A DNA stretch of 33,783 bases, from assembly GCA_964633235.1 (NCBI GenBank), contig CAZWGD010000001.1:1-33783 (forward strand), written 5' to 3'. Positions 468 through 22,068 of the stretch are shown here, piece after piece; the stretch's first letter is position 1; each line of letters begins with the position of its first letter. This DNA is from an uncultured Desulfobacteraceae bacterium (lineage in GTDB: Bacteria; Desulfobacterota; Desulfobacteria; Desulfobacterales; CAZWGD01). The notes beneath the pieces are model-generated. The model searched no databases. It saw nothing but the letters and a program-made list of their open reading frames with translations, and was not told where the DNA came from. The position numbers and the translations under genes were made by a program.

Positions 468-789
468 CCAAGTGTTCCCAAATCCAGGAGATACTGCGTA
501 AAACGGGACAGCAATAGACCCAGCGGCACGGTTTGTCAGCGCAGCGATCAGCGTCTCCGGGAACGCTCGTTATCACTGAAACTGGTCGCAAAACACTCCT
601 GATGCCATTAAGGGTGTAGCCCTGCTGACGCAGGGATGGTATGGTGGGTTTCAAAAATTAAGGAGGACATCCTCGCACATGCGGCAACCCTTTACCACGC
701 TGTTTTAATTCGTGAATTCATCGAGAAATCAGACCGATAATTAGGACACATATCAATTCACCCGCCCATTGGACCGAAAGGAGTTTCTC

Positions 790-3402
790 ATGATCAGACG
801 TACTAAACATTGGATTCCCGTGTTGGTCACCCTCTTCATCATCTCCATTCTTTCAGGATGTACGCATATGGAGAAAAAAGGCGAATTCCAGGAGACTCAG
901 ACTCAAAAGTCAGAGGTACAAGAATCTGCCGCACCTGCTGAAGCCACGCCTGCCTCCGCACCGGAAGTCCAACAGGAAGTTGTAACCGTAGCCGTGGGTC
1001 GACTGAACCTCCGCGCCCAGGGAACCACCGATAGCCTCATCCTGAGCGTTTTAAAGAAGGGCGATGCCCTTGTGGTACTGGAACGGAAGGATCACTGGAT
1101 AAACGTTCAAACCGCATCCGGAAAGCAGGGTTGGGTTGCCGCGCGCTACACCCATCCGCCAGGGAAAGCGCCTGTGGTGGCGTCCGCACCGAAGACGTCC
1201 GCCCTTCCGAAAACGGAGGCCGCCAAACCCCAGGCAACCCCGGCAGCCGACTCACCCGCAGCACCGGCAACCACCCCCTCGACAGGACAAACAGAAGAAC
1301 CTACCACTCCGGCCAAGCCCCGGACGGAAGCATTTTCTCAAAAAGAGGCTGTTGCCCTTTTTAATCACTACCGAAACACCATGGCGGAAGGTGATTTCAA
1401 GGCCTTTTTAGCCTGTATTTACCATCCCCCTGAACCGGCCGGGGATGAGCCTTCGCTCGAGAAGGGCACTCCCGAAGAGTTTGATCAGGCAAAGGAGTTT
1501 CTGCTGGAGTTGACCCCCGATCCTGCGGCATCCGAGATTCTCAAGTTCGACAGCAACGACGAGGTGGCGCTTCTGGTGATTCGGAGCGATCTTGAAAACC
1601 CCGACTACATTACTTTGAGTGCCTTAAAATTTGTTTTTGACAAAGGCGAATGGAAGATTTTCAGTAAGTTTTACGACAACACCTTTCCCCGTAAAGACGC
1701 CGAGGCGGATCAAGCCGCGATTGCCAATGACCTTAAGAACAATCGCGAGCTGCAGCTGGCTGCTGTAGAGGCCGAATTAAGGTCATCAACCACGGTATCC
1801 CCATCCACCCCGAAACCCGAGGCGATCCCGGCCAGTGCCGGAAGCGCAGAGGGGGAGCTGATCGTCAACGGAGAATCCACCCCGCTGAGATATGCCTACG
1901 CCTATATGGAACCCGGCTTTTTCGATAAAACCACGATGGATACAGTGGTTATCCTATCCGACATAGCGCTGGATGAAGAGGCGGTGAACGATTGGGGCAA
2001 ACGGGCGGATCTGGAAGCGGCCGGAAAGCTTCACTGCGTGGAACTAACCATCAACACCGAGGGGCGAGTCATCTCACGCCGCCTGCGCCACTCAGCCTTT
2101 AAAGCCAGCCCCAGTGGAGTGTCCGGCAGCGAGGTTTTCGAACCCCAGGCTGCCGACGAGGGGGTGATTGCCGGCAAGGCCTACACGACCTCAGAGGATG
2201 ATTTTTTCGGCACCACCTACCAGTATCGCGTGTCCTTCAGGACGCAGATCAAACCACCCGCTGAGGCTTCCGCCGAGGATACGGCGGCCCCGACGCAATC
2301 GTCCGTATTCAACGATTCTCCCAAACATGCGGCCCTTGTCGAAATGCTTAAAGCCGAAGGCAAGACGGAGATACTTCAGACGGCTACTTCTGTGGGTATG
2401 AACATCCTGGAAGATTTTGCCAGGGTTGTTATCACCTATGCCCAGGAGGGAGAGGCCGCCAAAGCACATCTTTTCCTGTTTAAGGAGAATGACACCTGGG
2501 TGGCCCACGGCGAGCTTCCCACGCACAAAGATCATCCCCAGGTATTTTCCGAACTTGCCAGGCGATATTGTGCATCTCGGTATGCACATTTACAAGGCGT
2601 CGGTTATCTGGACGACAGCCATGAGAACCAAGACCCACAAAAACGCGTCATCAATATGAATTGCGACGAATATGAAAACAACGAGTGGCAGTACCACCGT
2701 TTGAGCATGGTCTATGAGTACGACGCTCAAAAGGGATGGCACATTAGCGGGGCCGAACCCTACCAGAAGCCGGCGGAAAAAACGGATAAGCAGCCGGACA
2801 CCGCACCTATGCAAGCCGACCAAACCGCATCCCAGGCTGAGGAATCAAAGACGGAAACAAAACCTTGCACCTCCCTGCAGGAGTGCATGCAGATGTCGGA
2901 CTTGCAGATGGCCGTTATCAGCAGTCATCACCAGGGGGAAGCCCGTGTTCTTGAGCTCATCCAAGCAGGGTCGGATTTAGCTCACCGGAATAAAATCGGT
3001 GACACTCCGCTGCACACGGCCGTAAACGCCAGTCCACCCTTGGAAAAGATTGTTCTAGCGCTGCTTGAAGCCGGCGCCGAGGTGGACGCCCCCAATGAAT
3101 ATGGGTATAGCCCCTTACACAATCTGGCGCAGGGTGCCGTGAACAAAGAAGCGCCCATTGCGGTCATGCTCATCGCCGCCGGTGCCGACGTCAACCTCAA
3201 AGATCACTACGGTATGACGCCCCTTCATCATATGACCATCAATAAATTGGGATGCCAGGGTACGGAGGTGGCCCGGGTACTTATTGATGCCGGCGGCGAT
3301 GCCAATATGGAAGACAAATACGGCGAAACCCCGCTGGCTGCAGCGCGAAAAAACGGCTGCCACGAACTTGCGGCTATTTTTGAAAAGGCCGGTACCAACT
3401 AA
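790..3402 (+). CDS. Large lipoprotein with an SH3b domain, Pro/Ala/Thr-rich linkers, uncharacterised middle domains and 4-5 C-terminal ankyrin repeats
   Basis: The ORF track starts at TTG 769. ATG 790 is preferred because AAAGGAG (777-783) lies 6 nt upstream. The lipoprotein signal is MIRRTKHWIPVLVTLFIISILSGC. The SH3b-like segment is RLNLRAQGTTDSLILSVLKKGDALVVLERKDHWINVQTASGKQGWVAARY (about nt 982-1152). Ankyrin units are GDTPLHTAV..LLEAGAEVDA, GYSPLHNLA..LIAAGADVNL, GMTPLHHM..LIDAGGDANM and GETPLAAARKNGCHELAAIFEKAG (about nt 2900-3399). Confidence 0.85.
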   Translation: MIRRTKHWIPVLVTLFIISILSGCTHMEKKGEFQETQTQKSEVQESAAPAEATPASAPEVQQEVVTVAVGRLNLRAQGTTDSLILSVLKKGDALVVLERKDHWINVQTASGKQGWVAARYTHPPGKAPVVASAPKTSALPKTEAAKPQATPAADSPAAPATTPSTGQTEEPTTPAKPRTEAFSQKEAVALFNHYRNTMAEGDFKAFLACIYHPPEPAGDEPSLEKGTPEEFDQAKEFLLELTPDPAASEILKFDSNDEVALLVIRSDLENPDYITLSALKFVFDKGEWKIFSKFYDNTFPRKDAEADQAAIANDLKNNRELQLAAVEAELRSSTTVSPSTPKPEAIPASAGSAEGELIVNGESTPLRYAYAYMEPGFFDKTTMDTVVILSDIALDEEAVNDWGKRADLEAAGKLHCVELTINTEGRVISRRLRHSAFKASPSGVSGSEVFEPQAADEGVIAGKAYTTSEDDFFGTTYQYRVSFRTQIKPPAEASAEDTAAPTQSSVFNDSPKHAALVEMLKAEGKTEILQTATSVGMNILEDFARVVITYAQEGEAAKAHLFLFKENDTWVAHGELPTHKDHPQVFSELARRYCASRYAHLQGVGYLDDSHENQDPQKRVINMNCDEYENNEWQYHRLSMVYEYDAQKGWHISGAEPYQKPAEKTDKQPDTAPMQADQTASQAEESKTETKPCTSLQECMQMSDLQMAVISSHHQGEARVLELIQAGSDLAHRNKIGDTPLHTAVNASPPLEKIVLALLEAGAEVDAPNEYGYSPLHNLAQGAVNKEAPIAVMLIAAGADVNLKDHYGMTPLHHMTINKLGCQGTEVARVLIDAGGDANMEDKYGETPLAAARKNGCHELAAIFEKAGTN

Positions 3403-3492: not shown

Positions 3493-3942
3493 CTACTGCT
3501 CGGTTCTGATGATGAAATCGGCAAGATCGTCCGGATGGATGAATTCCTCGGAAATGGCCTGCCCCCTGACTGAAATACCGGCCTGGTGAACCGTCTCGGA
3601 ATCTCCGGTGATCAAGGGATGCCACCATTCTAGATCCTGTCCGTGGGCCACCAGCCGATAGGCGCATGTTTTCGGCAGCCATCGCAGCGCCATTACTCTG
3701 GCGGGGGTCAATGGCAGGCATGTTTTCACCAGGCGGGCTCGCTGCTTATAGGCTTTGCAGCGGCAGTGGTCAATATCCAGCAGGTAGCAGGATACGCCGG
3801 TATAATCGATGCGGCCGGTTTGCTTGTCCTCGAGTTTTTGCAGGCAACACCGGCCGCAACCATCGCACAGGGATTCCCATTCACGGCGGGTTAACTCGGA
3901 CAGGCTTTTTACTTTCCAAAAAAGAGATCGGTGAGGCGACAT
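3493..3942 (-). CDS. ycgN: UPF0260/YcgN-family Cys-rich (YkgJ-type CxxCxxCC) protein
   Basis: EWESLCDGCGRCCLQKLED...VSCYLLDIDHCRCKAYKQR...WLPKTCAYRLVAHGQDLEWWHPLITG is colinear with E. coli YcgN as I remember it. The start lies 5 nt after the stop of the upstream binding-protein gene. Confidence 0.8.
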   Translation of the reverse strand: MSPHRSLFWKVKSLSELTRREWESLCDGCGRCCLQKLEDKQTGRIDYTGVSCYLLDIDHCRCKAYKQRARLVKTCLPLTPARVMALRWLPKTCAYRLVAHGQDLEWWHPLITGDSETVHQAGISVRGQAISEEFIHPDDLADFIIRTEQ

Positions 3943-3947
3943 GTTGC

Positions 3948-4952
3948 CTAAAAGGGGTGCCTGATTACGGCTTCCACATGGACAGGTTTGGGTATCTGCT
4001 TCTGATCCAGCATGATTTTCTCAGTTTGCCGCCAGGCTTCCACATCTATGCTGCCGATACGGATATTCTGTTGGGGCTTGACCAAACTGCGGGTAAGCTT
4101 TAATTGTTCCTGCATGATATCGGGCGCCGTGTCCTTGTCGTACCCTTGCAGCATTTTCAGGACCACCGTCTCATTTTGCGGGTTCAGGGCCTGTTCCCAA
4201 CCCTTTAAAAGTGCCCGGGTAAATTTTGCTACCGTGTCCGGCTGCGTTTCCACCATTCGTTTGGAGGTGACAACGGAGTTGGCCACAAATTTGACCCCGT
4301 GGTCGGCCGGATTAAAATAGGCCACGCTTTCACCGTCCTTGGCGAGTTTTCTTTCCAGGATGGGTGCCTGTGAGTTGCGATAGACCGGCCAGATATCGAC
4401 CTTTTTCTGATAAAAGGGGGTGTAATCATAGCGCACGCTGAAAATGGTGATGTCTTTTTCCGTGATGCCGTTTTTGGCCATGAGTGTCCGCATAATGGTT
4501 TCATCATTGCCGCCGAAGGTGATTCCCACGACCTTGCCCTGGATATCCTGGACCTGATTGATCTGCAAGTTCTCCCGGCGGTAGATCCACTGCAGGGGAT
4601 TGATTTGAAATAGCTGGGCGACGACCACCACCGGCGACCCCTTGGAGAGGGCGCGGATCACCTGGTCGGCCGAGGCTACACCGAAATGGGCATATCCCAA
4701 TTCCAACTCGCGGATGGCGTCCCTTTCCGGTCCGCCTTCTTTGATATCCACCTTCAGACCTTCTGCCTTAAAGGCACCCTGCTCATGGGCGGCGATATCA
4801 CCGACTACGCTGGCATTAAAGAGCCATTTCAGTCGGTAGGTTATCATTTCCGAACTTTCGGCCGGGGTCGTAAAGGGTGAAAATAGCGCCAGGACCAAAC
4901 AGAAAAATAATAATGCAAGCATGGTGGTCTTAGGTTGGGTCTCTCTTAGCAT
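3948..4952 (-). CDS. ABC transporter periplasmic substrate-binding protein, NMT1/THI5-like (NitT/TauT family)
   Basis: A signal peptide (MLRETQPKTTMLALLFFCLVLALFSPF) is followed by the SsuA/TauA/NMT1-like pattern LKWLFNASVVGDIAAHEQGAFKAEGLKVDIKEGGPERDAIRELELGYAHFGVASADQVI. ATG 4952 is preferred over 4973 because GGGGGA lies 8 nt upstream. Confidence 0.8.
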   Translation of the reverse strand: MLRETQPKTTMLALLFFCLVLALFSPFTTPAESSEMITYRLKWLFNASVVGDIAAHEQGAFKAEGLKVDIKEGGPERDAIRELELGYAHFGVASADQVIRALSKGSPVVVVAQLFQINPLQWIYRRENLQINQVQDIQGKVVGITFGGNDETIMRTLMAKNGITEKDITIFSVRYDYTPFYQKKVDIWPVYRNSQAPILERKLAKDGESVAYFNPADHGVKFVANSVVTSKRMVETQPDTVAKFTRALLKGWEQALNPQNETVVLKMLQGYDKDTAPDIMQEQLKLTRSLVKPQQNIRIGSIDVEAWRQTEKIMLDQKQIPKPVHVEAVIRHPF

Positions 4953-5048
4953 GTTCACTATCCCCCATATCATTTTTACCGATCCATAAAGCGCCGCTAA
5001 AGCGGATATCGGAGATCTGGTACGGTTTTATGGGCCGGAGTTGTGATT

Positions 5049-5798
5049 TCAATGGTGCGCCCAGGTCTTCTTGACCAGTCTGCCAATTTCTTCCAGCAGG
5101 CCCTGGTAAACCGACAGGGTCATGCCGATTAAAAAAAGAGCCGTGAGAATTTTGGCCAGATCGCTTTGATAAAGCGCTATGCGGATACTGTAGCCTATCC
5201 CGGCGTTGGCTGCAATGAATTCGGCCACAATCGTCCCGGCCATAGCCAGCGTCGCGCTACCACTGATGACGGTGGTTAGCTTATTCAAATTTTCAAAAGC
5301 CCTTATCTTGACTTCCAACTGCCATCGCATTCTCCCGGTTACCCGGTAGAAATGTTCGATGTCCTCGACCGGCTCAGACATGATCCCGAGAACCGAGAGC
5401 AATATGGGAAAATAGCAAATCATGGCGGCGATCAAAAGCCGGGATAAAAATCCGTCACCGAACAGGATAAAAATGATCGGTGCAATGGCAACGATCGGAT
5501 AGGCCTGAATATTGTAGGCCGCAACCTTAATGAAGGATCCGAACCAGGTTGTCCGACGGCCGAGAATACCAACCAGTAAGGCCATCACAATCGAGATCAC
5601 CTGCCCGATGACGGCCACGGATATGGTATCGGCCGCATCCATCAGATAGCGGTTGAAGGTGGTTCGAAACGTATTCACCAGATCTTCGAGACCCGGAATG
5701 ACGTAATCGGAAAGACCCAGCAGATATTTGACACCAAAGAGCACCGTCAGTCCAAGTAGATAGATGATCAGAAATTGATAAATGCGCCTAGGCAGCAT
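5049..5798 (-). CDS. ABC transporter permease (NitT/TauT-type)
   Basis: A 249-aa polytopic membrane protein of about 6 hydrophobic helices. It lies between the ATPase and binding-protein genes and overlaps the ATPase stop by 11 nt. Confidence 0.8.
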   Translation of the reverse strand: MLPRRIYQFLIIYLLGLTVLFGVKYLLGLSDYVIPGLEDLVNTFRTTFNRYLMDAADTISVAVIGQVISIVMALLVGILGRRTTWFGSFIKVAAYNIQAYPIVAIAPIIFILFGDGFLSRLLIAAMICYFPILLSVLGIMSEPVEDIEHFYRVTGRMRWQLEVKIRAFENLNKLTTVISGSATLAMAGTIVAEFIAANAGIGYSIRIALYQSDLAKILTALFLIGMTLSVYQGLLEEIGRLVKKTWAHH

Positions 5799-6525
5799 GC
5801 ATGATCTCCAGCATGGTTTCCTGTAATTGGTCCCTGGCCACCGACTGGCCCAATTGATGATCCCGGCCCTTCACCTTCAGCACCTGCGGTTTTTTGCGGG
5901 GACTGCGGAAAACGCATATCTCCCGGCAGTAGGTTGCCACCTCCACCACATTATGAGAGATGTACAAAAAATAGGTCTCCGGGAACATGACCTTGATCTT
6001 GAGAATGATTTTTTCCCGGGTGCGCTCGTCCACGTTGGCTAAGCTTTCATCCATGATGAGCAGATCAAAATCCTGCAGCAGGTAGCGTATCAGGTTCACC
6101 CGGTTTTGTTGTCCAAGTGAAAGCTGGGAAAACCTCAGTCCCATGGTATGGGCCATATCAAAGGAATCGATCAGTTCGTCCCGGCGCTCCCTGAGCGTGG
6201 GCGGTGTAATCTTCTCCAAGTGTTTACCGACGCCGGACCAGTCGGGAAGCCTTTCCAAATTGTACGAGTACAGCCGGGTCCGCAGGCCGTCTGTCCTTAC
6301 ACTGCCCGTATATTGGGTGATTTTTCCTGCAAGGATGTGGGCCAGGGAAGTCTTTCCCACCCCGGAAGGGCCGAAAAGCGCATTGAACCCGGGTTTTTCG
6401 ATGGCAAAAGAGAGCTGATGAAAGACATCCATACTGGAATTGGGATAGCGAAAGGTGATGTTACGGCATTCCAGAAGCTTACTCATTGTGGTTAAATCAT
6501 CTCTCCGTTTATGGATCCAAGCCAT
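5788..6525 (-). CDS. ABC transporter ATP-binding protein
   Basis: Walker A is GPSGVGKTS, the signature-like motif is LSLGQQNRV and Walker B is LLIMDESLANVD. The start is ambiguous: ATG 6525 or ATG 6486 (MSKLLECRNITF...), neither with a good RBS. Confidence 0.85.
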   Translation of the reverse strand: MAWIHKRRDDLTTMSKLLECRNITFRYPNSSMDVFHQLSFAIEKPGFNALFGPSGVGKTSLAHILAGKITQYTGSVRTDGLRTRLYSYNLERLPDWSGVGKHLEKITPPTLRERRDELIDSFDMAHTMGLRFSQLSLGQQNRVNLIRYLLQDFDLLIMDESLANVDERTREKIILKIKVMFPETYFLYISHNVVEVATYCREICVFRSPRKKPQVLKVKGRDHQLGQSVARDQLQETMLEIMHAA

Positions 6526-6649: not shown

Positions 6650-7522
<873 letters not shown>

Positions 7523-7581: not shown

Positions 7582-8751
7582 TCAGGGGTCCCAAGTGTCC
7601 GCCTGCAACCCGATCCACGCGCTTTGGACTGCGGGTTGAGCTGCATGCTTGGTCTGCCGATATATTTCCAGCAAGGTTTCAGGGGTGATATCACGACCAC
7701 CCAACCCTGCGATGTAGCTGAAAACCGCCGGACCGCCTTTTAGATTGCATAGGGCCGCCCGCACTTCCTGGGCAAAGATGCCACCGGCGCCAAATGAACA
7801 GTTTCGATCGACCACGGCGACTTTAGAGGCCTGACCGAGAATACGACGGATCTTTTCCGCCGGAAAAGGCCGCAGCATTTTGATCTTTAGCATCCCCACA
7901 CTTTCCCCCCGGGCGCGCAGGCCGGAGAGGGCCAGTCTGCAGGTGCCGCATACGGTGCCGCTGACAACCAGCACCACGTCAGCCCCCCGGCAATGGACAG
8001 CCTCCACGTCACCGTATCGGCGTGCGAAGTGCTGGTCGAACGCCGATTCGAGGCGGTCCCACAAAGCCGGTACCCGTTCCATGGCCTGCTGGAGGTCATG
8101 ACGCATCTCCATATAGGCGTTGGGTGCCACCATCTGGCCCAAGGCGTATGGAGAGGCCGGGTCGAGTCGGATTTTTGGCTTGAAGGGCGGTAGGAAACGG
8201 TCCACCTGTTCCTGGGTCGGGATGTCCACCGGTTCATAAGTGTGGGAAAGAAAAAAGGCATCCAGGACCACCATCACCGGCAGGTTGATCTGTTCCCCAA
8301 GGCGATAGGCCATCAGGGTAGTGTCAAACACTTCCTGGCCGTCCTCGCAGTAAAGCTGGATCCAGCCTGTATCGCGTTGCGACAGGCTGTCGGTCTGGTC
8401 CACCCAGATATTCCATCCCGGGGCCAGAGCCCGATTGACTTCCGCCATGACGATGGGCAACCGGGCCCCCGAGGCCCAGTGCAGCAGTTCGTGCATGTAA
8501 GCCAGACCTTGACCGGAAGTGGCCGTGAAGGTCCGCACACCGCCGCTGGCGGCACCGATTACGGAAGCCATGGCCGAGTGCTCGCTCTCTACGCAAATAA
8601 ATTTGGCGGCCAGTTCGCCATCGGCGACCTGACCGGCAATGGCTTCAACGATATGGGTCTGGGGTGTGATAGGATAGGCCGAAACCACCTGGACCCTGGC
8701 AAGCCGCACGGCTTCGGAGACCGCCCGGCTGCCCTCAATTACCTGGCGCAT
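7582..8751 (-). CDS. 2-oxoacid:ferredoxin oxidoreductase, alpha subunit
   Basis: The PorA-type N-terminus is MRQVIEGSRAVSEAVRLARVQVVSAYPITPQTHIVE, followed by TATSGQGLAYMHE. It overlaps the stop of the upstream flavoprotein/delta gene by 17 nt. Confidence 0.9.
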   Translation of the reverse strand: MRQVIEGSRAVSEAVRLARVQVVSAYPITPQTHIVEAIAGQVADGELAAKFICVESEHSAMASVIGAASGGVRTFTATSGQGLAYMHELLHWASGARLPIVMAEVNRALAPGWNIWVDQTDSLSQRDTGWIQLYCEDGQEVFDTTLMAYRLGEQINLPVMVVLDAFFLSHTYEPVDIPTQEQVDRFLPPFKPKIRLDPASPYALGQMVAPNAYMEMRHDLQQAMERVPALWDRLESAFDQHFARRYGDVEAVHCRGADVVLVVSGTVCGTCRLALSGLRARGESVGMLKIKMLRPFPAEKIRRILGQASKVAVVDRNCSFGAGGIFAQEVRAALCNLKGGPAVFSYIAGLGGRDITPETLLEIYRQTKHAAQPAVQSAWIGLQADTWDP

Positions 8752-10489
8752 GTCCCGTCTCCTCCAGACTCATGGCGCTCCGCGGACACTCTTCTACACA
8801 GACACCGCAGCCTTTGCAGTAATCCAGGTCGATCCACCGGGTGGGTTCACCGATGACCGCTGTCTCCGGACAGAACAAGCTGCAGTTGCCGCAGTCGGTG
8901 CATATGCCGCAGTTGAAGCAGCGACCGGCTTCTGCGGAAGCGGCGCTGTGAACGTAATCAGACTGCGTGGGCGAGAATGACAAACGACCTTCCCGGCATG
9001 CCCCTGAAGCCGGTTCTTGTCTAGATGCGGATTCGAAATAGCCCGTGTTGATATTGGCGTAGTCAACCACCTGCCCCAGTCGCTGCCAAGACCCTTCCCC
9101 TGCGGTATAATGCGCCATGCTTAGCGCCGGTCCCGGGCCTACCCGGCAAGCGGCGAGCCTCTTTTCAATGTGCTGCCACCCCCGCCGGTGATAGACATCA
9201 ATGGCCATGGCCGCTTGCTTGCCGGAAGCAATGGCATCGGCGACACTCAGCTTATGGTTGACCAGGTCACCGCCGTATACAATCGGTTTCTCGTTGGCCG
9301 TCACGGTGCAGTGACTTAGACATAGCCTACCGGCCCCCCCTCTTTGAAACGGTAGCCACGCGGATTCCGCTTCTGCACCCAGGGCGGCAAATACACGCTC
9401 AACCCGCATGGTTTCGTGGCTGCCCCGAAGCGGAAAGGGTTTCACCCTGCCATCGTCATTTTGCCGGATTCCGACTGCCATCTGTTGCAGCTGAACAACC
9501 AGCGACCCGCCTTCCTGGGCAATTTTGACGGGGCGGGTCAGCTCCCTGATGTTGACGCCCTCCCGGCGGGCCGCCGTAATTTCTTGGCCGAGGGCGGGCA
9601 TGTCGGCAACGCGCCGACGGTAGAGAATCACCGCTTCAGATCCTAAACGCACGAGGGTTCGGGCCACGTCGATGGCCGTGTTACCGCCACCGATAACGGC
9701 CGAGAGCCCCTTGAATACGGTCATGCGGCCCCGGCGGATCGCCCGCAACAGGGTAAGCCCATCCAGGACGTGGATCGCCCCGGGGATTTTCATTTTAGCC
9801 GGCAGGCCCAGGCCGCATCCCACAAAGATGGCCTGGTAGGTTTCTCCGGCCGTCCGCAGAAAGGATGCCGAGACGGGGTGATTGCAGTAGATGGCCACCC
9901 CCTGGTTCTGAATCCGCTTGACCTCACGCTTCAAGACAGCCGGGGGTAGACGGTAAGCGGGAATTCCCCACCGCAGCAGCCCGCCCGGCGCCGCCTCAGC
10001 TTCGAAGACATCACAGGCATAGCCCAGACGGCGTAAAAAGAAGGCCGCGGCCAGCCCGGAGGGGCCTGACCCGATCACGGCTACCCGCATCCTGTTGGTG
10101 GGGCCGGGGGTGATCTCGGGTAAAGTCCTTTCATGAGTGAACGGCCGTCCCACAAAGCGCTCGATGGCATTGATAGCCACAGGAGCGTCCAGCTGGGAGC
10201 GAATACAAGACCGCTCACAGGGATGAGAGCAGACATGACCGCATACTTCCGGAAAGGGATTTTCACCCAGCATACTTTGCAGCGCCCGGTGATAGAGGCC
10301 CCGGGAGGATAAACTCATCAGCGTCGGGATATCCGTACCGAGCGGGCAGGCAGCACTGCATGGCGCGGTCTTGTTGATTAAGACCGGCTGCAGGTAACGC
10401 CAGGAACCGGTCTTATTCACACGTGTTGAACGGTCCGAACGAGAAATCAACAAGGAGCGTCCGTCAGGGATGTCTGGTTTGCCGGCCAC
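8735..10489 (-). CDS. Fusion of a GltD/NfnB/SudA-like NAD(P)H:FAD iron-sulfur flavoprotein with an OFOR delta-type 2x[4Fe-4S] ferredoxin domain
   Basis: N-terminal Cys clusters are CSAACPLGTDIP and CGHVCSHPCERSC. The FAD Rossmann motif is VAVIGSGPSGLAAAFFL...GGLLRWGIPAYRLP. The second dinucleotide fold is SAVIGGGNTAIDVARTL. The C-terminal part carries CFNCGICTDCGNCSLFCP and CKGCGVCVEECP. Confidence 0.85.
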   Translation of the reverse strand: MAGKPDIPDGRSLLISRSDRSTRVNKTGSWRYLQPVLINKTAPCSAACPLGTDIPTLMSLSSRGLYHRALQSMLGENPFPEVCGHVCSHPCERSCIRSQLDAPVAINAIERFVGRPFTHERTLPEITPGPTNRMRVAVIGSGPSGLAAAFFLRRLGYACDVFEAEAAPGGLLRWGIPAYRLPPAVLKREVKRIQNQGVAIYCNHPVSASFLRTAGETYQAIFVGCGLGLPAKMKIPGAIHVLDGLTLLRAIRRGRMTVFKGLSAVIGGGNTAIDVARTLVRLGSEAVILYRRRVADMPALGQEITAARREGVNIRELTRPVKIAQEGGSLVVQLQQMAVGIRQNDDGRVKPFPLRGSHETMRVERVFAALGAEAESAWLPFQRGGAGRLCLSHCTVTANEKPIVYGGDLVNHKLSVADAIASGKQAAMAIDVYHRRGWQHIEKRLAACRVGPGPALSMAHYTAGEGSWQRLGQVVDYANINTGYFESASRQEPASGACREGRLSFSPTQSDYVHSAASAEAGRCFNCGICTDCGNCSLFCPETAVIGEPTRWIDLDYCKGCGVCVEECPRSAMSLEETGHAPGN

Positions 10490-10493
10490 TATT

Positions 10494-11090
10494 TCAATTC
10501 CTCTGCTGTTCCGACGGCGGCATTTGCCGGCGGATCACTTTTTCAAAGGCTTGCCGGGCGGCCCTTGCATTGGCGTCAGGTTTTGAGGAAAGATCCCTTT
10601 CAATGACCGCCATGACGATTTCGATGGGTGGTTTTTTTAAAAGGCCTGCCAGGGCGCCGATCATGGCCGTGTTCACCATGGGATGCGTGCGTGTGCCCAG
10701 GTTGTTGTCCGCGGCAATCTTGGTCGCATCAATGGTGGCCAGTTTAACCCCTGAAAAATGATTTGCGAAATCTGAACCCGCGGGTGCATTCAGCAGCACC
10801 CAACCACCGGGCTTTAAGCCCTGGGTGATGTTGACGATTTGCATCAGGCGTCCGTCCTGCACCAGAACATGGTCCGGTGTGGTGATACTATACCTGGCCA
10901 GGATTTTTTGGGTATCGATTCTGAGATAGGCTTCCACCGGAGCCCCGCGTCTTTCCACCCCAAATGAGGGGAAAGACTGGACATGAAAACCCGCCTGGAA
11001 AAAGGCCTTTGAAAGCAGAACAGCAGCCACAACCGTACCCTGTCCGCCGCGGCCGTGAAAGCGAATTTCCTGCATCCGGTCAACTTTCAT
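10494..11090 (-). CDS. 2-oxoacid:ferredoxin oxidoreductase, gamma subunit
   Basis: The PorG-type pattern is IRFHGRGGQGTVVAAVLLSKAFFQAGFHVQSFPSFGVERRGAPVEAYLRI. It lies 4 nt upstream of the next gene. Confidence 0.9.
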   Translation of the reverse strand: MKVDRMQEIRFHGRGGQGTVVAAVLLSKAFFQAGFHVQSFPSFGVERRGAPVEAYLRIDTQKILARYSITTPDHVLVQDGRLMQIVNITQGLKPGGWVLLNAPAGSDFANHFSGVKLATIDATKIAADNNLGTRTHPMVNTAMIGALAGLLKKPPIEIVMAVIERDLSSKPDANARAARQAFEKVIRRQMPPSEQQRN

Positions 11091-11109: not shown

Positions 11110-14100
11110 TTAGGCCGTCGCCCCTTGGACTCTCATTTTTAGACCGCCCTGCCCATACGGTTCTCCGTGACGGCCGTTTTGCAAGAACCTGAGATATGGA
11201 ATGATGACCTCGTTTTTATTGCTTTCGGTCCCATCGTAGGTGATGGAAACAACCGGGACACCGGTGCTCTTTTCAATCTCCTTGGCCATGGCTTCCGTTA
11301 CAAGCGATGGGCAACAAAAGGCGGGACTGGTCTGGACAAACATGGCCAGGTCGGGATGATGCTTCAGAAGATAGTGAATCTTGATGATATTTTCCATGGA
11401 TTCACCGGTATGCTCCAAGCGCATATTATACCGAGACAAGATTTTTTCAGGCGGATCGTTATATTCCGGCTCGGATTCTCTCAATATCAACTTCAGGTAT
11501 TTTTCATAACGCTTTTCCAGAAGCGTTACGGCTGAGATCATGGCCTTGGAGGCCAGGACACTCAGATAATTGCCCTCCACGAACCATTTTCGAAGATAGG
11601 GTCTGGCGATCATCTTGATGTAGGAGCTGTACGGGGTAGTCACCACCCGCCCCCCCCAGGATTCGATTTGATGAACCAGGTTCTGGTTGCATACCGCATT
11701 ATCGCGTGCATACAGATCACCGAATATGGCCACCTTGGGTCGTGGCGACAAGCCCGGGTCTCTCGTTTCAATGGCTGCCAGCCGCTCGACAACTTCTGCC
11801 AGGGCATTCTCCTTGGACCGCCTTCCCAAGAAGGCGTTTTCCAAGATCGCCAGGCATTGCTGCAGGACGGCATCTGTCTGGCCTGAATGGCATTCATAGG
11901 GTCGAATCATGCATCCCATTTTATGCAGGAACCCACCGAACATATAGGCGAAATAGATGCTGATGGGCAGTTTTTTAGAGATGTCTGCAAAAGACATGAT
12001 CCCGGGATACACCTCCGCGTTTTCAAACCCGTTGCCCTGTTTTGACAACATATGCTTGAGATGCATCGGCAGGAGGCCCAGGTTGCACGGTATGGTGGAA
12101 CGGATCATCCAGAGAATACACCGGGACGGATCAAAGCCGTGACGCTCAACAGTATCAATGAATTCCTGCCCGATGATATTCATCGGGATGCATTGTCCCG
12201 TGTTATGGCGCAGGCTCTTCTGAATGCTTACATGACGCTCTTCTAACAGGTGTGCATCAACACCTTCGCGTCTTAAGGCGGCCACCACCAGGCGCAGGGA
12301 AATGTCCCCCCAGTTGGGCAGCATCAGGGTCTTGCCGGCCAGATCGATGGCTGCCGATTTGCGCAGGGGTTTCAGGGCCGCAGGCGCAATCTTTTTTCTC
12401 TTGGCGCCGTGGTGATTTTGGAACGATTGGATAGCCGCTTCGATACGGGTTTCATACCCGACGGTTGAATCGTGTTCATCCAGCTGTAGAATCAGGTATG
12501 GTTTCGCATACCGGTCCATGATTTGCTTAAAATATTCGGCCACATAGGAATCGGGGCTGCATTTGAAGGACGTAATCAATACCGGATAAGCGTCCGGGTT
12601 TAGGGCGGTCTGTGCAGCTGCCTTCACAATCTCCGCAGCATAGTGCCAATGCAGCTGATCCAGCAGCGGATCAATTGACCCAATCGCCCGGTCCGTGACG
12701 GTGATCATGTCCTGATAAAAGGTCTTGACGCCCAAGGCGCTGAAAATGTCGGGAATGCCCTTGTTCATATGCCTGGAGAGCACCGTGTAAGGCCTTCCCA
12801 GGAGCACCACGTGAAGCTGACCGGCCACAGCCGTTTCCCGGCTGTACAGCTGCTTGAGGGCCTGCAGCCGCTCCCGTTTCATCCTCAAGGCTTGCTCAAA
12901 GGCGGCCGAAACTTTAGAGAATGCTATTCTCCGCGCAGAGACAGTTTTGAGCATGTTGTACAGCTGAATCCGCGCGTGGAACTTGCCGTAGAGGTAGTAA
13001 ATCAGCGGTGTTAAAAAACGGTTCCGCAGGTCTTTCGTCGAGTGACTCCGGTCCTTGATAAAAGATGCCAGGGTGGGCGCATATTGGGTGTAATAACAGT
13101 ACTGCCTGCGGCGCTGATGGCCACGGCGCCCGTGGTCCAGGTAAAACGGCATAAAGATAAAATCCGCTCGGTCCAGCAGGTGAAGGATATGTCCGTGCGT
13201 GGCGGCTATGGGTGCACAAAACTCCGCCCCAGCGAGATGCTTGCCGTCCCGGAGGCCATGTGAAAAATCCGCACTTGTAAGGGTTTTTAGGCCCAATGTA
13301 TGAAAGAATAGCTGCCAGAATTCCAGGTCTTCCTGGAGATGCAGTGCCGCCGGGATACCAATGGTAAGGGTCTGCGGACCCGCGGTTGACTTTGGAATCG
13401 AGAAAAGCTTCTTTCTTTCCTTAAGCAGGTCGAAACCGGACAGGTTGTTGTTGACATACTGTCTGGTATCATAATCCCTGCCGCATAAAAATCCGTATGC
13501 GGTTGTGCGGCCATGGACCTCGGCAACGCTCAATTTGCAGTGGTTGCTGCAAATCTCACAGACTTCAGTTTGAATGGGGATCTTTTTTTGATGAAGATTC
13601 AGCCCCTTGAACCGTGAGGTTGTCAGCCGGGCATCGGCAAGCTTCAAGGCTACCCCCAGTGCACCGGAAAGATGACAATATGGCGATACTTGGATCGGTT
13701 TTCTCAACCGTTGTTCAAAAGCGGCCACTAGCGCCCGGTTTTTGGCCGTGGCCCCTTGAAACAGAACGGTGTTGCCGATGTTGCCCTCCACGGCGACCTT
13801 GGTAAGATAATTTTCCCTGATGGCGTGCAGAACAGATGCCAGGACCTCATCTTTAGGGTACCCTCTGCCGAGGTAGTAATTGATGTCCCTTTCCATGAAA
13901 ACCGTGCAGCGATCGCTGCTAAGGGGTGCACGACGCCCTACAGCACGATCAGCGTAAGCCGCCAGAGGACATTCCAGTCTCGAGGCCTGCTCTTCGATAA
14001 AGCTGCCGGTGCCCGCGGCACAGACCGTATTCATAACCGAAAAGGTAACCCTGCCGTTGTTGAGGGTTGTGAACTTGCTGTCTTGTCCACCGATTTCAAT

Positions 14101-15411
14101 AATCGTGTCAACCTGCGGGTTGATCTCGACAGCCGCCCGGGCATGGGCCGTGATTTCGTCTACCACCAGATCGGCCCCCAGGATGCGGCCTGTAAATTTT
14201 CTTCCGGACCCCGTAGTGCCGGCCGCTAGAATTTTCAGGTGCCCCTCTTCATCCGCCAGCATATCCGCTATGGCGGCGAACAAGTTTTGCACGGCGCTTA
14301 CGGGCCGCCCTGATGTACGGGTGTAAAACCCAGCCAGTACCTCACCGGACCGGTTGGTGATAACGGCTTTGGTGCTGGTTGAACCAATATCGATCCCTAA
14401 ATAGGCCTGCAAAATGTTCCGGTCATCGGAATCAAGATGGATATCCCGGTAAATATCCACTTCAACCGGTATGGAAAACTCATCCCGCCGGGGTCGAAAT
14501 ATATACTGCTTTAGACTGTTGAAGTCAGGATAGTCCGACAATCTTAATTCCAGCGGATGATGAAAGTAAGAAAGCGCGGTATTTTCGTGAACCAAGAGAT
14601 CATCGATCTCGCGGATGTGCATTTCGGAATGGCAAGCGGCCTCGTGGGCTAGAGTCAGAGCCGCCCCTACGGCACCGTAGTGGGATGACTCGGCCTGGAT
14701 GTCCAAGCCAACCAGTGCCTGAATATGTTCGACAACAGCCTTATTCCGGGAAACACCGCCACAAAAAATGATGGGGCCTTCCGGGGACTCTCCCACAAAA
14801 AGCGTATCCACAATATTGCGCGCCAAACCCTGGCAGAGACCGTCGCAGATCTCCGTCAAGCTGTAGCCTTCCTGCTGTGCATGCACCAGGTCGGTCTTGG
14901 CAAAGACGGCGCATCGCGAAGCGATCTTGGGAATTCTTCCAGTGTTGGCATGGGCAATGCGACCGAGTTCGGCAACACTTTGCAAGCTTAGCCGCCCGGC
15001 TTGCTGGTCAAGAAAACTTCCGGTGCCGGCGGCGCAGGAAGTGTTGGTCCGGTAGCCCAGATAGTTGTCCCGGCTATCGAAGCGGATCAAGCCGAACTTC
15101 TCCCCCCCGACGATCAGAATCGAGCCCACGGCAGCATGAAAATGACGTGCGGCCGCTATAACCGCTATGCGGTTATCATACCGCGCGGTGGCTTTAAGGG
15201 TTGCTGGAGATGACGTGGTGGCGGCAATGTATCGTATCGGCGAAAGATCTATATCGGCCAGAAGCGCGGCCAGGGTCGGCTTCAGGTTGCCATGGTGAAA
15301 TCCATAGCGGGTCCATAGAAGATGTTTATCAGCGGTCAGGCCCGCGATGGCTACAGCCACCGATCCGATATCTATGCCCAAGATTTGGCACCGGCTGGAT
15401 GAGTTTGTCAT
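11110..15411 (-). CDS. 1433-aa fusion: two HgdC/BcrAD-BadFG-type ATPase (activase) modules plus a large DUF2229/dehydratase-component-like C-terminal region ('CoA-substrate-specific enzyme activase' family)
   Basis: Module 1 has LGIDIGS, NTSCAAGTGSFLDQQ and SRCAVFAKTD. Module 2 has LGIDIGSTSTKAV, NTVCAAGTGSFIEEQ and DRCTVFMERD. The Cys-rich linker is CEICSNHCKL..FLCGRDY. About 800 further residues follow with no motif I can assign to a catalytic function. Confidence 0.85.
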   Translation of the reverse strand: MTNSSSRCQILGIDIGSVAVAIAGLTADKHLLWTRYGFHHGNLKPTLAALLADIDLSPIRYIAATTSSPATLKATARYDNRIAVIAAARHFHAAVGSILIVGGEKFGLIRFDSRDNYLGYRTNTSCAAGTGSFLDQQAGRLSLQSVAELGRIAHANTGRIPKIASRCAVFAKTDLVHAQQEGYSLTEICDGLCQGLARNIVDTLFVGESPEGPIIFCGGVSRNKAVVEHIQALVGLDIQAESSHYGAVGAALTLAHEAACHSEMHIREIDDLLVHENTALSYFHHPLELRLSDYPDFNSLKQYIFRPRRDEFSIPVEVDIYRDIHLDSDDRNILQAYLGIDIGSTSTKAVITNRSGEVLAGFYTRTSGRPVSAVQNLFAAIADMLADEEGHLKILAAGTTGSGRKFTGRILGADLVVDEITAHARAAVEINPQVDTIIEIGGQDSKFTTLNNGRVTFSVMNTVCAAGTGSFIEEQASRLECPLAAYADRAVGRRAPLSSDRCTVFMERDINYYLGRGYPKDEVLASVLHAIRENYLTKVAVEGNIGNTVLFQGATAKNRALVAAFEQRLRKPIQVSPYCHLSGALGVALKLADARLTTSRFKGLNLHQKKIPIQTEVCEICSNHCKLSVAEVHGRTTAYGFLCGRDYDTRQYVNNNLSGFDLLKERKKLFSIPKSTAGPQTLTIGIPAALHLQEDLEFWQLFFHTLGLKTLTSADFSHGLRDGKHLAGAEFCAPIAATHGHILHLLDRADFIFMPFYLDHGRRGHQRRRQYCYYTQYAPTLASFIKDRSHSTKDLRNRFLTPLIYYLYGKFHARIQLYNMLKTVSARRIAFSKVSAAFEQALRMKRERLQALKQLYSRETAVAGQLHVVLLGRPYTVLSRHMNKGIPDIFSALGVKTFYQDMITVTDRAIGSIDPLLDQLHWHYAAEIVKAAAQTALNPDAYPVLITSFKCSPDSYVAEYFKQIMDRYAKPYLILQLDEHDSTVGYETRIEAAIQSFQNHHGAKRKKIAPAALKPLRKSAAIDLAGKTLMLPNWGDISLRLVVAALRREGVDAHLLEERHVSIQKSLRHNTGQCIPMNIIGQEFIDTVERHGFDPSRCILWMIRSTIPCNLGLLPMHLKHMLSKQGNGFENAEVYPGIMSFADISKKLPISIYFAYMFGGFLHKMGCMIRPYECHSGQTDAVLQQCLAILENAFLGRRSKENALAEVVERLAAIETRDPGLSPRPKVAIFGDLYARDNAVCNQNLVHQIESWGGRVVTTPYSSYIKMIARPYLRKWFVEGNYLSVLASKAMISAVTLLEKRYEKYLKLILRESEPEYNDPPEKILSRYNMRLEHTGESMENIIKIHYLLKHHPDLAMFVQTSPAFCCPSLVTEAMAKEIEKSTGVPVVSITYDGTESNKNEVIIPYLRFLQNGRHGEPYGQGGLKMRVQGATA

Positions 15412-20538: not shown

Positions 20539-22068
20539 ATGAAAGCAGTGATTGATACCGGCGCGGCGTATCATTGGCACACCGCTTATGCCCGCTATGG
20601 CATGGAGCGGCATTTCCTTGACTGGGAAAACCAGCCAAATCCCTTTAAAGAATATGCAAGCCTTGAACCCGTCCCTCTGCCGGCTGTCTCCGGTTTTCCC
20701 CAGGAATCGCTCTGGAGCCTGGTATCCCCGCCGGCTGATCCTGCCGAACCCAAAAGACCAGGAATGGATCTGATTGCGCGACTGCTGTACCTTGCCGGGG
20801 GGCTCACCGCCAAAAGCCGGCACGCCGGCAAGGTTTTTTATTTCCGTTCCGCAGCCTCAGCCGGTGCCCTCTATCCCATTGAACTGTACCTGGGTGTTTT
20901 TAATGTTGAAGACCGGGAGCCTGGGATCTATCATTTCGGCGTTCGTGATTTCACCTTGTCCCCCATGAGACCTGGCGATTTCAGCCCGTTATCGGGAACC
21001 ATCATCCCCGCCTTGCCTGCCGCTCAGCATCCGTGCCTGTCCGTCCATCTAACCGGGATCTTTTTTAGAAGTGCCTGGAAATACCGGGCCCGGGCTTTCA
21101 GGTATGTGCTCCTGGACGGCGGCCATGTATTGGAGAACCTGCTTCTGGCCCTGGCTTCGGCGAAATTGGCCAATACCTGCCACTACGATTTCAGCGATGA
21201 AACGGTCGCGCGGTTGATCGGCCTGGATGGCCGGCGGGAAGCGGGATTGGCATGGGTCAATGTTTCCGGCGGCGCTCGGGAGACTGGAAACCTGCCGGCA
21301 ACCCGGGATCACCAGGCCCTGGATGTGTTGCCTCCCGAAATAATCTCCGCCGGCCGGGTGTCCCGCCGCGAAGTCGTTTACGACGAGATCCTGGAAGCTT
21401 ACCGGGCAGGCAAACCGAAACCAGGACCTGGCCGGATGCGGGTACGGATGTCAAAATATATCGGCGTTCGGGCCAAAACATGGATGGCCGTAGAAAAGAC
21501 GGAAGCGCACGCCGAAGAGGTGCCTTTTGCCCAGTCGATTCTGTCCCGCCGTTCCAAACGGAACTACATCAGCCAGGCCCTGCCGAAAAAGAAATACTTC
21601 CGCCTGCTTGATCTTTTGTGCCGCGCGTCCCGCAAAGACGGAGATAGTGATCCCCTTGGCTGTCTTGCCACCGGGTTGCTAACCGGCAACATTGAAGGGA
21701 TTGCTCCCGGTTTTTACCTACTAGATCCACAAGCACGGCGCTTCGGACAGGTCATTTCCGGCAACCTGGTCGATCCCATGGCGTCGGTTTGCCTGGACCA
21801 GAAATGGTTGGCCGGTGCCGCCCTGCAGGTCATGTTCCTGGCCAACCTGAAAACGCTTGACCAGCAGTACGGCGCCCGGGGCTATCGTTACGCCATGCTG
21901 AATGCCGGTCGCCTGGGCCAGCTCATCTACCTCGGCGCCACCGCTCTCGGGCTGGGATGCTGCGGCATCGGTGCCCTGTACGACACCGAGGCCCAAAAAC
22001 TCCTGGGCCTCAACCGGGACTCGGCTTTGCTTTACCTGGTGGCGGTGGGAGTGGTGAAGCGGCTGTAG
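20539..22068 (+). CDS. Tandem SagB-type dehydrogenase/nitroreductase-family protein
   Basis: The N-half has YHWHTAYARYGMERHFLDWENQPNPFKEY, RSAASAGALYPIELYL and RYVLLDGGHVLENL. The C-half has SRRSKRNY, YRYAMLNAGRLGQLIYL and LGCCGIGALYD. GTG 20548 is an alternative start with better spacing to GGAG. Confidence 0.8.
   Translation: MKAVIDTGAAYHWHTAYARYGMERHFLDWENQPNPFKEYASLEPVPLPAVSGFPQESLWSLVSPPADPAEPKRPGMDLIARLLYLAGGLTAKSRHAGKVFYFRSAASAGALYPIELYLGVFNVEDREPGIYHFGVRDFTLSPMRPGDFSPLSGTIIPALPAAQHPCLSVHLTGIFFRSAWKYRARAFRYVLLDGGHVLENLLLALASAKLANTCHYDFSDETVARLIGLDGRREAGLAWVNVSGGARETGNLPATRDHQALDVLPPEIISAGRVSRREVVYDEILEAYRAGKPKPGPGRMRVRMSKYIGVRAKTWMAVEKTEAHAEEVPFAQSILSRRSKRNYISQALPKKKYFRLLDLLCRASRKDGDSDPLGCLATGLLTGNIEGIAPGFYLLDPQARRFGQVISGNLVDPMASVCLDQKWLAGAALQVMFLANLKTLDQQYGARGYRYAMLNAGRLGQLIYLGATALGLGCCGIGALYDTEAQKLLGLNRDSALLYLVAVGVVKRL

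Follow-up and report, generated by a model that had tools for sequence, protein, structure and literature searches.

A split delta subunit carrying an NfnB/DsrL-type flavoprotein in a predicted 2-oxoacid:NADP+ oxidoreductase of an uncultured Desulfobacteraceae bacterium

Among the 2-oxoacid:ferredoxin oxidoreductases (OFORs) the four-subunit PorABCD/VorABCD enzymes, e.g. the pyruvate:ferredoxin oxidoreductase (PFOR) of M. acetivorans (PDB 9bt4), have the gene order gamma-delta-alpha-beta and use ferredoxin as acceptor. An OFOR that reduces NADP+ is known from Azoarcus evansii, the 2-oxoglutarate:NADP+ oxidoreductase (KGOR), and one of its subunits has been placed among the homologues of GltD and NfnB (PMC10134865, citing Ebenau-Jehle, Boll & Fuchs 2003). 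Among the flavoproteins, DsrL has been described as an NAD(P)H:acceptor oxidoreductase that feeds its partner enzyme via a C-terminal ferredoxin domain (Loeffler et al. 2020, PMC7596348). The locus analysed here comes from the metagenome-assembled genome (MAG, 62% complete) of an uncultured Desulfobacteraceae bacterium, contig CAZWGD010000001.1 (GCA_964633235.1), positions 1-33,783; this stretch of 33,783 nucleotides is referred to as the window. In an OFOR operon within it a protein of 584 amino acids (aa), here called X, stands in the place of the delta subunit PorD and carries, inserted into a PorD-like sequence, an Fe-S flavoprotein with sites for flavin adenine dinucleotide (FAD) and NADP(H). 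The reading that we favour, at a probability of about 60%, is that gamma, X, alpha and beta form a 2-oxoacid:NADP+ oxidoreductase of the POR/VOR type in which X replaces PorD.

The gene order of PorABCD/VorABCD is kept at this locus. Gamma and X are separated by 4 nt, X and alpha overlap by 17 nt and alpha and beta are 59 nt apart in the list of open reading frames (ORFs); no stand-alone delta gene (~70-100 aa, TIGR02179) is present in the operon and the gaps are too small to fit one. A GAGGA Shine-Dalgarno-like site lies ~9 nt upstream of the GTG start codon of X, and homologues begin in the same alignment column. The ORFs and Pfam matches thus agree with an earlier sequence-only reading of this DNA, which had the four genes in this order with X replacing the usual delta subunit. 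A scan for promoters and terminators at the locus gave counts at chance level, and operon boundaries are therefore neither supported nor contradicted by it. To judge from their sequences, gamma, alpha and beta are ordinary members of the four-subunit POR/VOR clade. The alpha subunit scores 475.5 bits on PorA_Arch (cut-off 550) and 405 bits on VorA (cut-off 646), and beta scores 394.7 bits on PRK11864 (cut-off 405) and 349 bits on PorB (cut-off 405); these scores, each below its cut-off, place the two subunits between the Por and Vor equivalogs and do not discriminate pyruvate from 2-ketoisovalerate specificity. Four Cys of beta (C17, C20, C45 and C207) are invariant in 34 sequences.

A domain scan of X, which the sequence-only reading had proposed as a check on its flavoprotein, gave the Pfam matches Fer4_20 (residues 40-116, 1.2e-15), Pyr_redox_2 (134-379, 4.2e-18), Pyr_redox (264-333) and Fer4 (553-573), with NAD_binding_8 also found in the core. 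Both dinucleotide folds are present, that for FAD at 136-150 and the second at 265-278, and the identification as a flavoprotein was borne out, as were the two CxxCxxCxxxCP motifs of an OFOR delta subunit, which lie at 530-541 and 558-569 within a match to PorD_Arch (529-575, 3.8e-18). TIGR02179 matched at 528-576 with 53.5 bits, below its cut-off of 60.05, and the C-terminus also matches 9bt4_G, the delta subunit of the M. acetivorans PFOR. The best full-length model is NF009410 / PRK12771, "NAD(P)-binding protein", which spans residues 17-576 with 431.3 bits, below its cut-off of 516. For residues ~23-439 the best matches among solved structures are of the NfnB/Stn type (9n5u_A, 5.2e-73; 8oh5_C, 6e-64; T. 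maritima NfnB 4ylf_B, 1.1e-58), while the match to a GltD structure is weaker (1e-43). X is not GltD by the family models, on which it reached 129 bits against a cut-off of 448 (TIGR01317) and 177 against 483 (TIGR01318).

Conservation was examined in an alignment of 25 homologues at 48-60% identity. Its invariant positions include C44, C48, C83, C87, C91, C95 and E110 of the N-terminal Fe-S domain, the GxGPxG motif of the FAD fold, GGGN.A.D.AR of the second fold, Y290-R291-R292-R293, C448, and the C-terminal C524, C527, C530, C533, C536, C540-P, C558, C561, C564 and C568-P. The first ferredoxin motif has six Cys in X and in 80 of 80 relatives. In NfnB, Glu117 is a ligand of the proximal cluster, and E110 is its apparent counterpart in the aligned sequences; in NfnB and DsrL-2 a YRR motif holds the 2'-phosphate of NADP(H) (PMC7596348 for both). 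The YRRR of X points to NADP(H) over NAD(H), which gives a more definite form to the earlier idea, itself supported here, of an OFOR wired to a pyridine nucleotide. The claim of two N-terminal Fe-S clusters fared less evenly: six invariant Cys and E110 are there, but the first two Cys of the NfnB pattern (Cys39 and Cys42, of the distal cluster) have equivalents in the X family that are not Cys. The family has extra invariant Cys of its own, a CxxC (C524, C527) right before the canonical first ferredoxin motif and C448, and H393/C394 were also noted; the extra Cys might complete the distal cluster or bind a further metal site. An AlphaFold2 (AF2) monomer of X built from a 25-row alignment had a mean pLDDT of 59.5, with values below 50 for the Fe-S domains, and is too poor for a fold search or for judging the proximity of Cys.

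PorD-like sequence occurs at both ends of X. Residues 20-45 (NKTGSWR..P) match positions 12-38 of the PorD_Arch model (E 1.7e-4) and the same stretch matches residues 11-37 of 9bt4_G, while residues 528-576 match model positions 32-81. The N-terminal match was examined further with N-terminal stretches of 60-75 residues, 37 of them cut from OFOR-linked relatives and two from DsrL; 33 of these 39 match PorD_Arch at E <= 0.01, the best at 7e-7. Since residues 20-45 match the arm of PorD, the flavoprotein is inserted within PorD rather than merely fused ahead of it, and the earlier description of a fused flavoprotein and delta subunit stands as to the presence of both parts and has to be changed as to their topology. 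The alignments thus place an NfnB-like module of ~480 aa between the N-terminal arm and the ferredoxin core of PorD, a delta subunit that is not interrupted in PorABCD/VorABCD.

A model of beta with X, in which three 4Fe-4S clusters and FAD were included, was run three times alongside three controls. It is supportive of docking in the manner of PorD: ipSAE was 0.89 for the complex against 0.00 for the best control, a mark that 58 of 80 solved complexes attain in the benchmark, as do 2 of 110 mismatched pairs, although the custom alignments and ligands used here depart from the tool's calibration. Contacts agree by at least 83% among the three runs, with a partner pLDDT of 84 or more. Confident contacts on X lie chiefly in its two PorD-like parts (16-31, 481/483 and 538-575, of which 538-567 and 575 touch beta); those on beta lie at 51-62, 178-181, 208-223 and 8-28, the last of these being the stretch with the CxxC of the proximal cluster.

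Relatives of X proved to be abundant. A protein search found more than 5000 clusters at E <= 1e-20, and the top 120 clusters are all of 544-630 aa, with the same domains, and are catalogued (JGI) under generic names. A scan of species genomes, with one genome per species and two peptide patterns, gave at least 600 pattern matches, of which at least 574 were confirmed as relatives. Synteny was examined at the best 80 loci among these relatives. OFOR subunit genes adjoin X at all 80, as gamma, alpha and beta together at 69, and the other 11 end at contig ends. The survey of OFOR operons that the sequence-only reading had also proposed thus found the same design beside OFOR genes throughout. The relatives are spread over more than ten phyla and show two gene orders. 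Order A, gamma-X-alpha-beta, was found at 26 loci from Desulfobacterota, Bacteroidota, Gemmatimonadota, Planctomycetota and others; order B, gamma-alpha-beta-X, at 54 loci from Pseudomonadota and Actinomycetota, cultured strains included, which form one clade (SH-aLRT 100). The order-B clade has members in many organisms with an aerobic or facultatively anaerobic way of life (Solirubrobacterales, Rhodocyclaceae, Pelagibacteraceae). Its cultured carriers include Gleimia europaea (L054), Varibaculum timonense (L090), Sulfurisoma sediminicola (L051) and Rubrivivax sp. A210 (L036). Within the phylum of the window 108 of 301 sampled genomes have a match at E <= 1e-100 and, from our reading of the match table, ~60 (roughly one in five of the 301) hold full-length copies, some of them 2-4.

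The closest named full-length relative of X, on sequence comparison, is DsrL and not GltD or SudA. A DsrL reference was obtained by gene context from two genomes in which dsrA, dsrB and dsrC occur with a 514-aa Fe-S protein in the dsrK position; it scores 711.5 bits on NF009410, which is therefore in effect a DsrL model. DsrL from a dsrABEFHCMKL cluster shares 28% identity with X (E 7e-54) over the whole span between the Fe-S domain and the C-terminal ferredoxin, both of these and the linker included. The two have the same order of N-terminal Fe-S domain, FAD domain with embedded NAD(P) fold, linker of ~90-100 aa and C-terminal 2x[4Fe-4S] domain, and have the six-Cys first motif in common; DsrL-2 has YRR, as X does, whereas the DsrL-1A sequence examined is without it. 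They differ in that the first 60 residues of this DsrL match no PorD model while X keeps a recognisable PorD arm, and in that DsrL is partnered with a sulfite reductase in a dsr cluster and X with a thiamine pyrophosphate (TPP) enzyme in an OFOR operon. The earlier assignment of the core to a GltD, NfnB or SudA type thus survives in its NfnB/GltD affinity and gives way to DsrL for the full-length protein. Loeffler et al. recognised DsrL by the presence of all domains in the right order, no linkage to genes for pyruvate or ketoisovalerate:ferredoxin oxidoreductases and dsrAB in the organism, and they noticed OFOR-linked look-alikes and excluded them (PMC7596348). X has the domain order but is linked to OFOR genes, lying between gamma and alpha, and the family had thus been seen earlier and then set aside. 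No dsr genes adjoin X, the MAG itself not having been searched for dsrAB, and for want of a dsr context X is not DsrL.

It is also of note that the DsrL of two sulfur oxidiser genomes (L101:6893-8854, forward strand; L102:5674-7647, reverse strand) have a loose 'SWR' near the N-terminus, at the place of the PorD arm in X, and that they have the linker and the six-Cys first motif in common with X. These sequence features hint at a single split-PorD ancestor for DsrL and the OFOR-linked proteins, and a side reading would be that DsrL itself arose from such a flavoprotein. Phylogenetic placement, another check proposed earlier, was achieved in part. The tree of X relatives, DsrL and paralogues supports only the order-B clade; its backbone collapses into a polytomy, long branches join one another and no branch sets the outgroup apart from the rest, so that no order of events can be claimed.

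Comparison with NfnB/StnC (PDB 4ylf, 5jca, 8oh5, 9n5u) shows a likeness in the Glu ligand, YRR and a shared cluster pattern, these being also the best solved matches. X differs from them in its added linker and PorD core, in the two missing distal-cluster Cys and in having no NfnA partner: no gene for such a protein ([2Fe-2S] + FAD, FNR-like) lies beside X, and no third gene is consistently adjacent in the 80 loci. The NADH-dependent phenylglyoxylate dehydrogenase PadEFGHI, judged from NCBIfam family names, resembles the present system in connecting an OFOR-type core to a pyridine nucleotide via an extra flavoprotein, and differs in having one gene for the flavoprotein (PadH) and another for the delta subunit (PadF). 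Scores of the present proteins on the Pad models are far below the cut-offs (PadE 117 against 300, PadG 276 against 700, PadI 235 against 700, PadF 34 against 150). The KGOR of A. evansii reportedly consists of three subunits of ~63, 62 and 37 kDa with FAD, a size that would match X, and is said to have a two-subunit KorAB-type core specific for 2-oxoglutarate. The core here is of the four-subunit POR/VOR type, and KGOR is a partial precedent for the X-type OFOR. Candidates for a KGOR-type three-gene locus among NfnB-like paralogues of one Chromatiaceae and one Sulfurisoma genome adjoin sulfate permease and complex-I/V-ATPase genes and were rejected.

In the mechanism proposed, gamma, X, alpha and beta would assemble into one four-subunit OFOR with X in PorD's place. 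The arm and the C-terminal 2x[4Fe-4S] core of X would dock on beta near the proximal cluster, as PorD does, with the NfnB/DsrL-type module of ~480 residues looping out. Electrons would pass from the TPP radical to the beta cluster, the two C-terminal clusters of X, its N-terminal clusters and FAD, and from there as hydride to NADP+. This would amount to 2-oxoacid + CoA + NADP+ -> acyl-CoA + CO2 + NADPH, with free ferredoxin bypassed and NADP+ as acceptor in place of the ferredoxin of PorABCD/VorABCD. The potential span of such a reaction is about -500 mV to -320 mV (textbook values), a drop that is strongly exergonic and would make the reaction effectively one-way. We infer in which order the clusters are passed, which substrate and acceptor are used and which way the reaction runs; the reading draws on the domains and motifs, the tight junctions without a separate delta gene, the split PorD, the synteny and the invariant YRRR, with further support from the analogy to DsrL, the docking model, the KGOR precedent and the three other OFOR alpha genes of the MAG. 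Two of those three are adjoined by ordinary small ferredoxin genes, beside which the X-bearing OFOR looks specialised.

A number of points must be weighed on the other side. A 2026 review of characterised PFORs, of one-, two-, four- and five-subunit types, has no flavin/NADP module among them, and no biochemical assay of this four-subunit type was found in the literature searched. With two NfnB distal-cluster Cys missing, neither the number of clusters nor the route of the electrons is certain. The complex score may be due to resemblance to solved PFORs (e.g. 9bt4) and not be independent evidence, and the complex model says nothing about the flavoprotein core of X. The tree does not settle how X relates to DsrL or NfnB, and since NfnB-type flavins bifurcate in Nfn, a third partner is possible for X.

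The PorD-type clusters are the ferredoxin docking site in ordinary OFORs, and the C-terminal domain of X keeps their full motifs. This, together with the many ferredoxin-dependent modules of the organism, is consistent with an enzyme of two acceptors in which free ferredoxin is still reduced and the flavoprotein is a built-in ferredoxin:NADP+ reductase that balances the pools with no energetic coupling. Such an arrangement is nevertheless unlikely, as ferredoxin in the role of main acceptor gives little reason for linkage at all 80 loci and the loss of the stand-alone delta. We regard as slightly less likely still a flavin-based bifurcation or confurcation in which three partners are coupled at the FAD of X: the OFOR, NADP(H) and a carrier from outside the complex, e.g. 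ferredoxin. In a bifurcating version NADPH oxidation would drive reductive carboxylation, i.e. 2-oxoacid synthesis, while the second electron went downhill to another acceptor. The core of X is closest to bifurcating modules of the NfnB/Stn type, E110 retains the Glu that ligates the proximal cluster in NfnB (PMC7596348), and X has two separate Fe-S arms, N-terminal and C-terminal. The conserved neighbours of X, however, are gamma, alpha and beta only, with no NfnA-like or other third-partner gene, a plain downhill reaction needs no coupling, and the available text of PMC7596348 makes no mention of bifurcation by DsrL. An OFOR of this kind, with NADPH electrons split at the FAD of X between the OFOR clusters, driving reductive carboxylation of acyl-CoA to 2-oxoacid, and a higher-potential exit, is given a slim chance; if it existed, 2-oxoacids or low-potential electrons would be obtained from NADPH without free reduced ferredoxin. 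Bifurcation had been offered as an option by the sequence-only reading, and the tests made here neither support nor exclude it.

Some PFORs are known to possess devices for redox protection (domain VII; PMC13768988) and the order-B clade is common in aerobes and facultative anaerobes, both of which would suit an NADPH module that stands off the main catalytic path and reductively activates or protects the OFOR clusters, e.g. after oxidative damage. This is very improbable, as X supplants the medial and distal clusters that are required for turnover in every four-subunit OFOR and is thus on the main path by construction. That X is orthologous to DsrL and works for sulfite reductase or some other sulfur enzyme, its position in the OFOR operon incidental, can be dismissed almost with certainty: NF009410 is its best full-length model (711 bits for DsrL), but X stays under the cut-off at 431 bits, has no adjacent dsr genes, belongs to a family in which OFOR linkage is universal and is of the kind excluded from DsrL by Loeffler et al. 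(PMC7596348). The preferred reading remains that of a 2-oxoacid:NADP+ oxidoreductase, the features of which are collected in the table.

Features of the OFOR operon and of protein X (positions in the window; residues are those of X)
Feature	Position	Strand	Description
gamma	10494-11090	-	OFOR gamma, 198 aa, P0002; Pfam POR 2.9e-35; TIGR02175 PorC_KorC 178.6 bits (cut-off 81.1)
X	8735-10489	-	584 aa, GTG start, P0001; delta subunit with inserted NfnB/DsrL-type FAD/NADP(H) Fe-S flavoprotein
PorD-like N-terminal arm of X	10361-10453	-	about residues 13-43; motif NKTGSWR..P
N-terminal Fe-S domain of X, Fer4_20	10142-10372	-	residues 40-116; invariant C44, C48, C83, C87, C91, C95, E110; aligns to StnC, NfnB and GltD chains
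FAD + NADP(H) Rossmann core of X	9182-10090	-	residues 134-436; Pyr_redox_2, Pyr_redox, NAD_binding_8; PDB matches 4ylf_B, 9n5u_A
YRRR motif of X	9611-9622	-	Y290-R293; invariant in family alignment
linker of X	8924-9181	-	residues 437-522 (~90 aa); invariant C448; aligns with DsrL linker; low confidence in AF2 model
PorD/DsrL-type 2x[4Fe-4S] core of X	8762-8923	-	residues 523-576; first motif six Cys: C524, C527, C530, C533, C536, C540
alpha	7582-8751	-	OFOR alpha, 389 aa, P0003; POR_N 9.2e-73, PFOR_II 7.2e-30
beta	6650-7522	-	OFOR beta, 290 aa, P0004; TPP_enzyme_C 2.1e-18; TPP and proximal-cluster Cys C17, C20, C45, C207

Upstream of the operon, 19 nt from gamma (11110-15411, reverse strand), lies a gene for a 1433-aa fusion in which DUF2229 is combined with two BcrAD_BadFG ATPase domains and HGD-D is matched weakly; the fusion is similar to an acyl-CoA dehydratase activase. 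It was rejected as a conserved partner of the OFOR, with one weak match in the 80 loci and none in the closest syntenic relative (L011). On the 3' side of beta (3493-6525, reverse strand) are genes for an ABC ATPase, a permease and an NMT1/THI5-type binding protein and a 149-aa Cys-rich ORF; these four are syntenic in L011 with 65-88% identity and occur in none of the 79 other loci. The compound carried by this transporter might hint at the substrate of the OFOR. Elsewhere in the window are genes on the forward strand for an 877-aa protein with bacterial SH3 and ankyrin repeats (769-3402) and for a 509-aa protein whose sole Pfam match is a C-terminal nitroreductase domain (20539-22068). Other contigs of the same MAG (C4, C170, C129 and C95; L002-L006) hold at least five more NfnB-like modules, several of them within open frames as long as 1143-1417 aa, and one of these modules also bears a PorD-like ferredoxin stretch. 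Among the sequencing runs listed as containing this DNA none is of RNA; those of DNA are seawater and marine metagenomes of two studies.

For the design of X novelty is not supported: this design is widespread, has been catalogued under generic names, was mentioned and excluded in PMC7596348 and has a biochemical precedent in NADP+- and NAD+-linked OFORs (PMC10134865). The X-type OFOR is a real, widespread and biochemically uncharacterised variant. In most descriptions OFORs figure as enzymes of ferredoxin or flavodoxin, and the family of X is common nonetheless. The split-PorD topology illustrates in concrete terms how an Fe-S wire may have a soluble flavoprotein grafted onto it and would tie the OFORs to the origin of DsrL. 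The cultured carriers of order B make the enzyme directly testable. If NADP+ is indeed reduced directly, metabolic models in which this step is entered as a source of reduced ferredoxin would be wrong for many anaerobes, and the same error would apply to some aerobes, including Actinomycetota, Rhodocyclaceae and Pelagibacteraceae.

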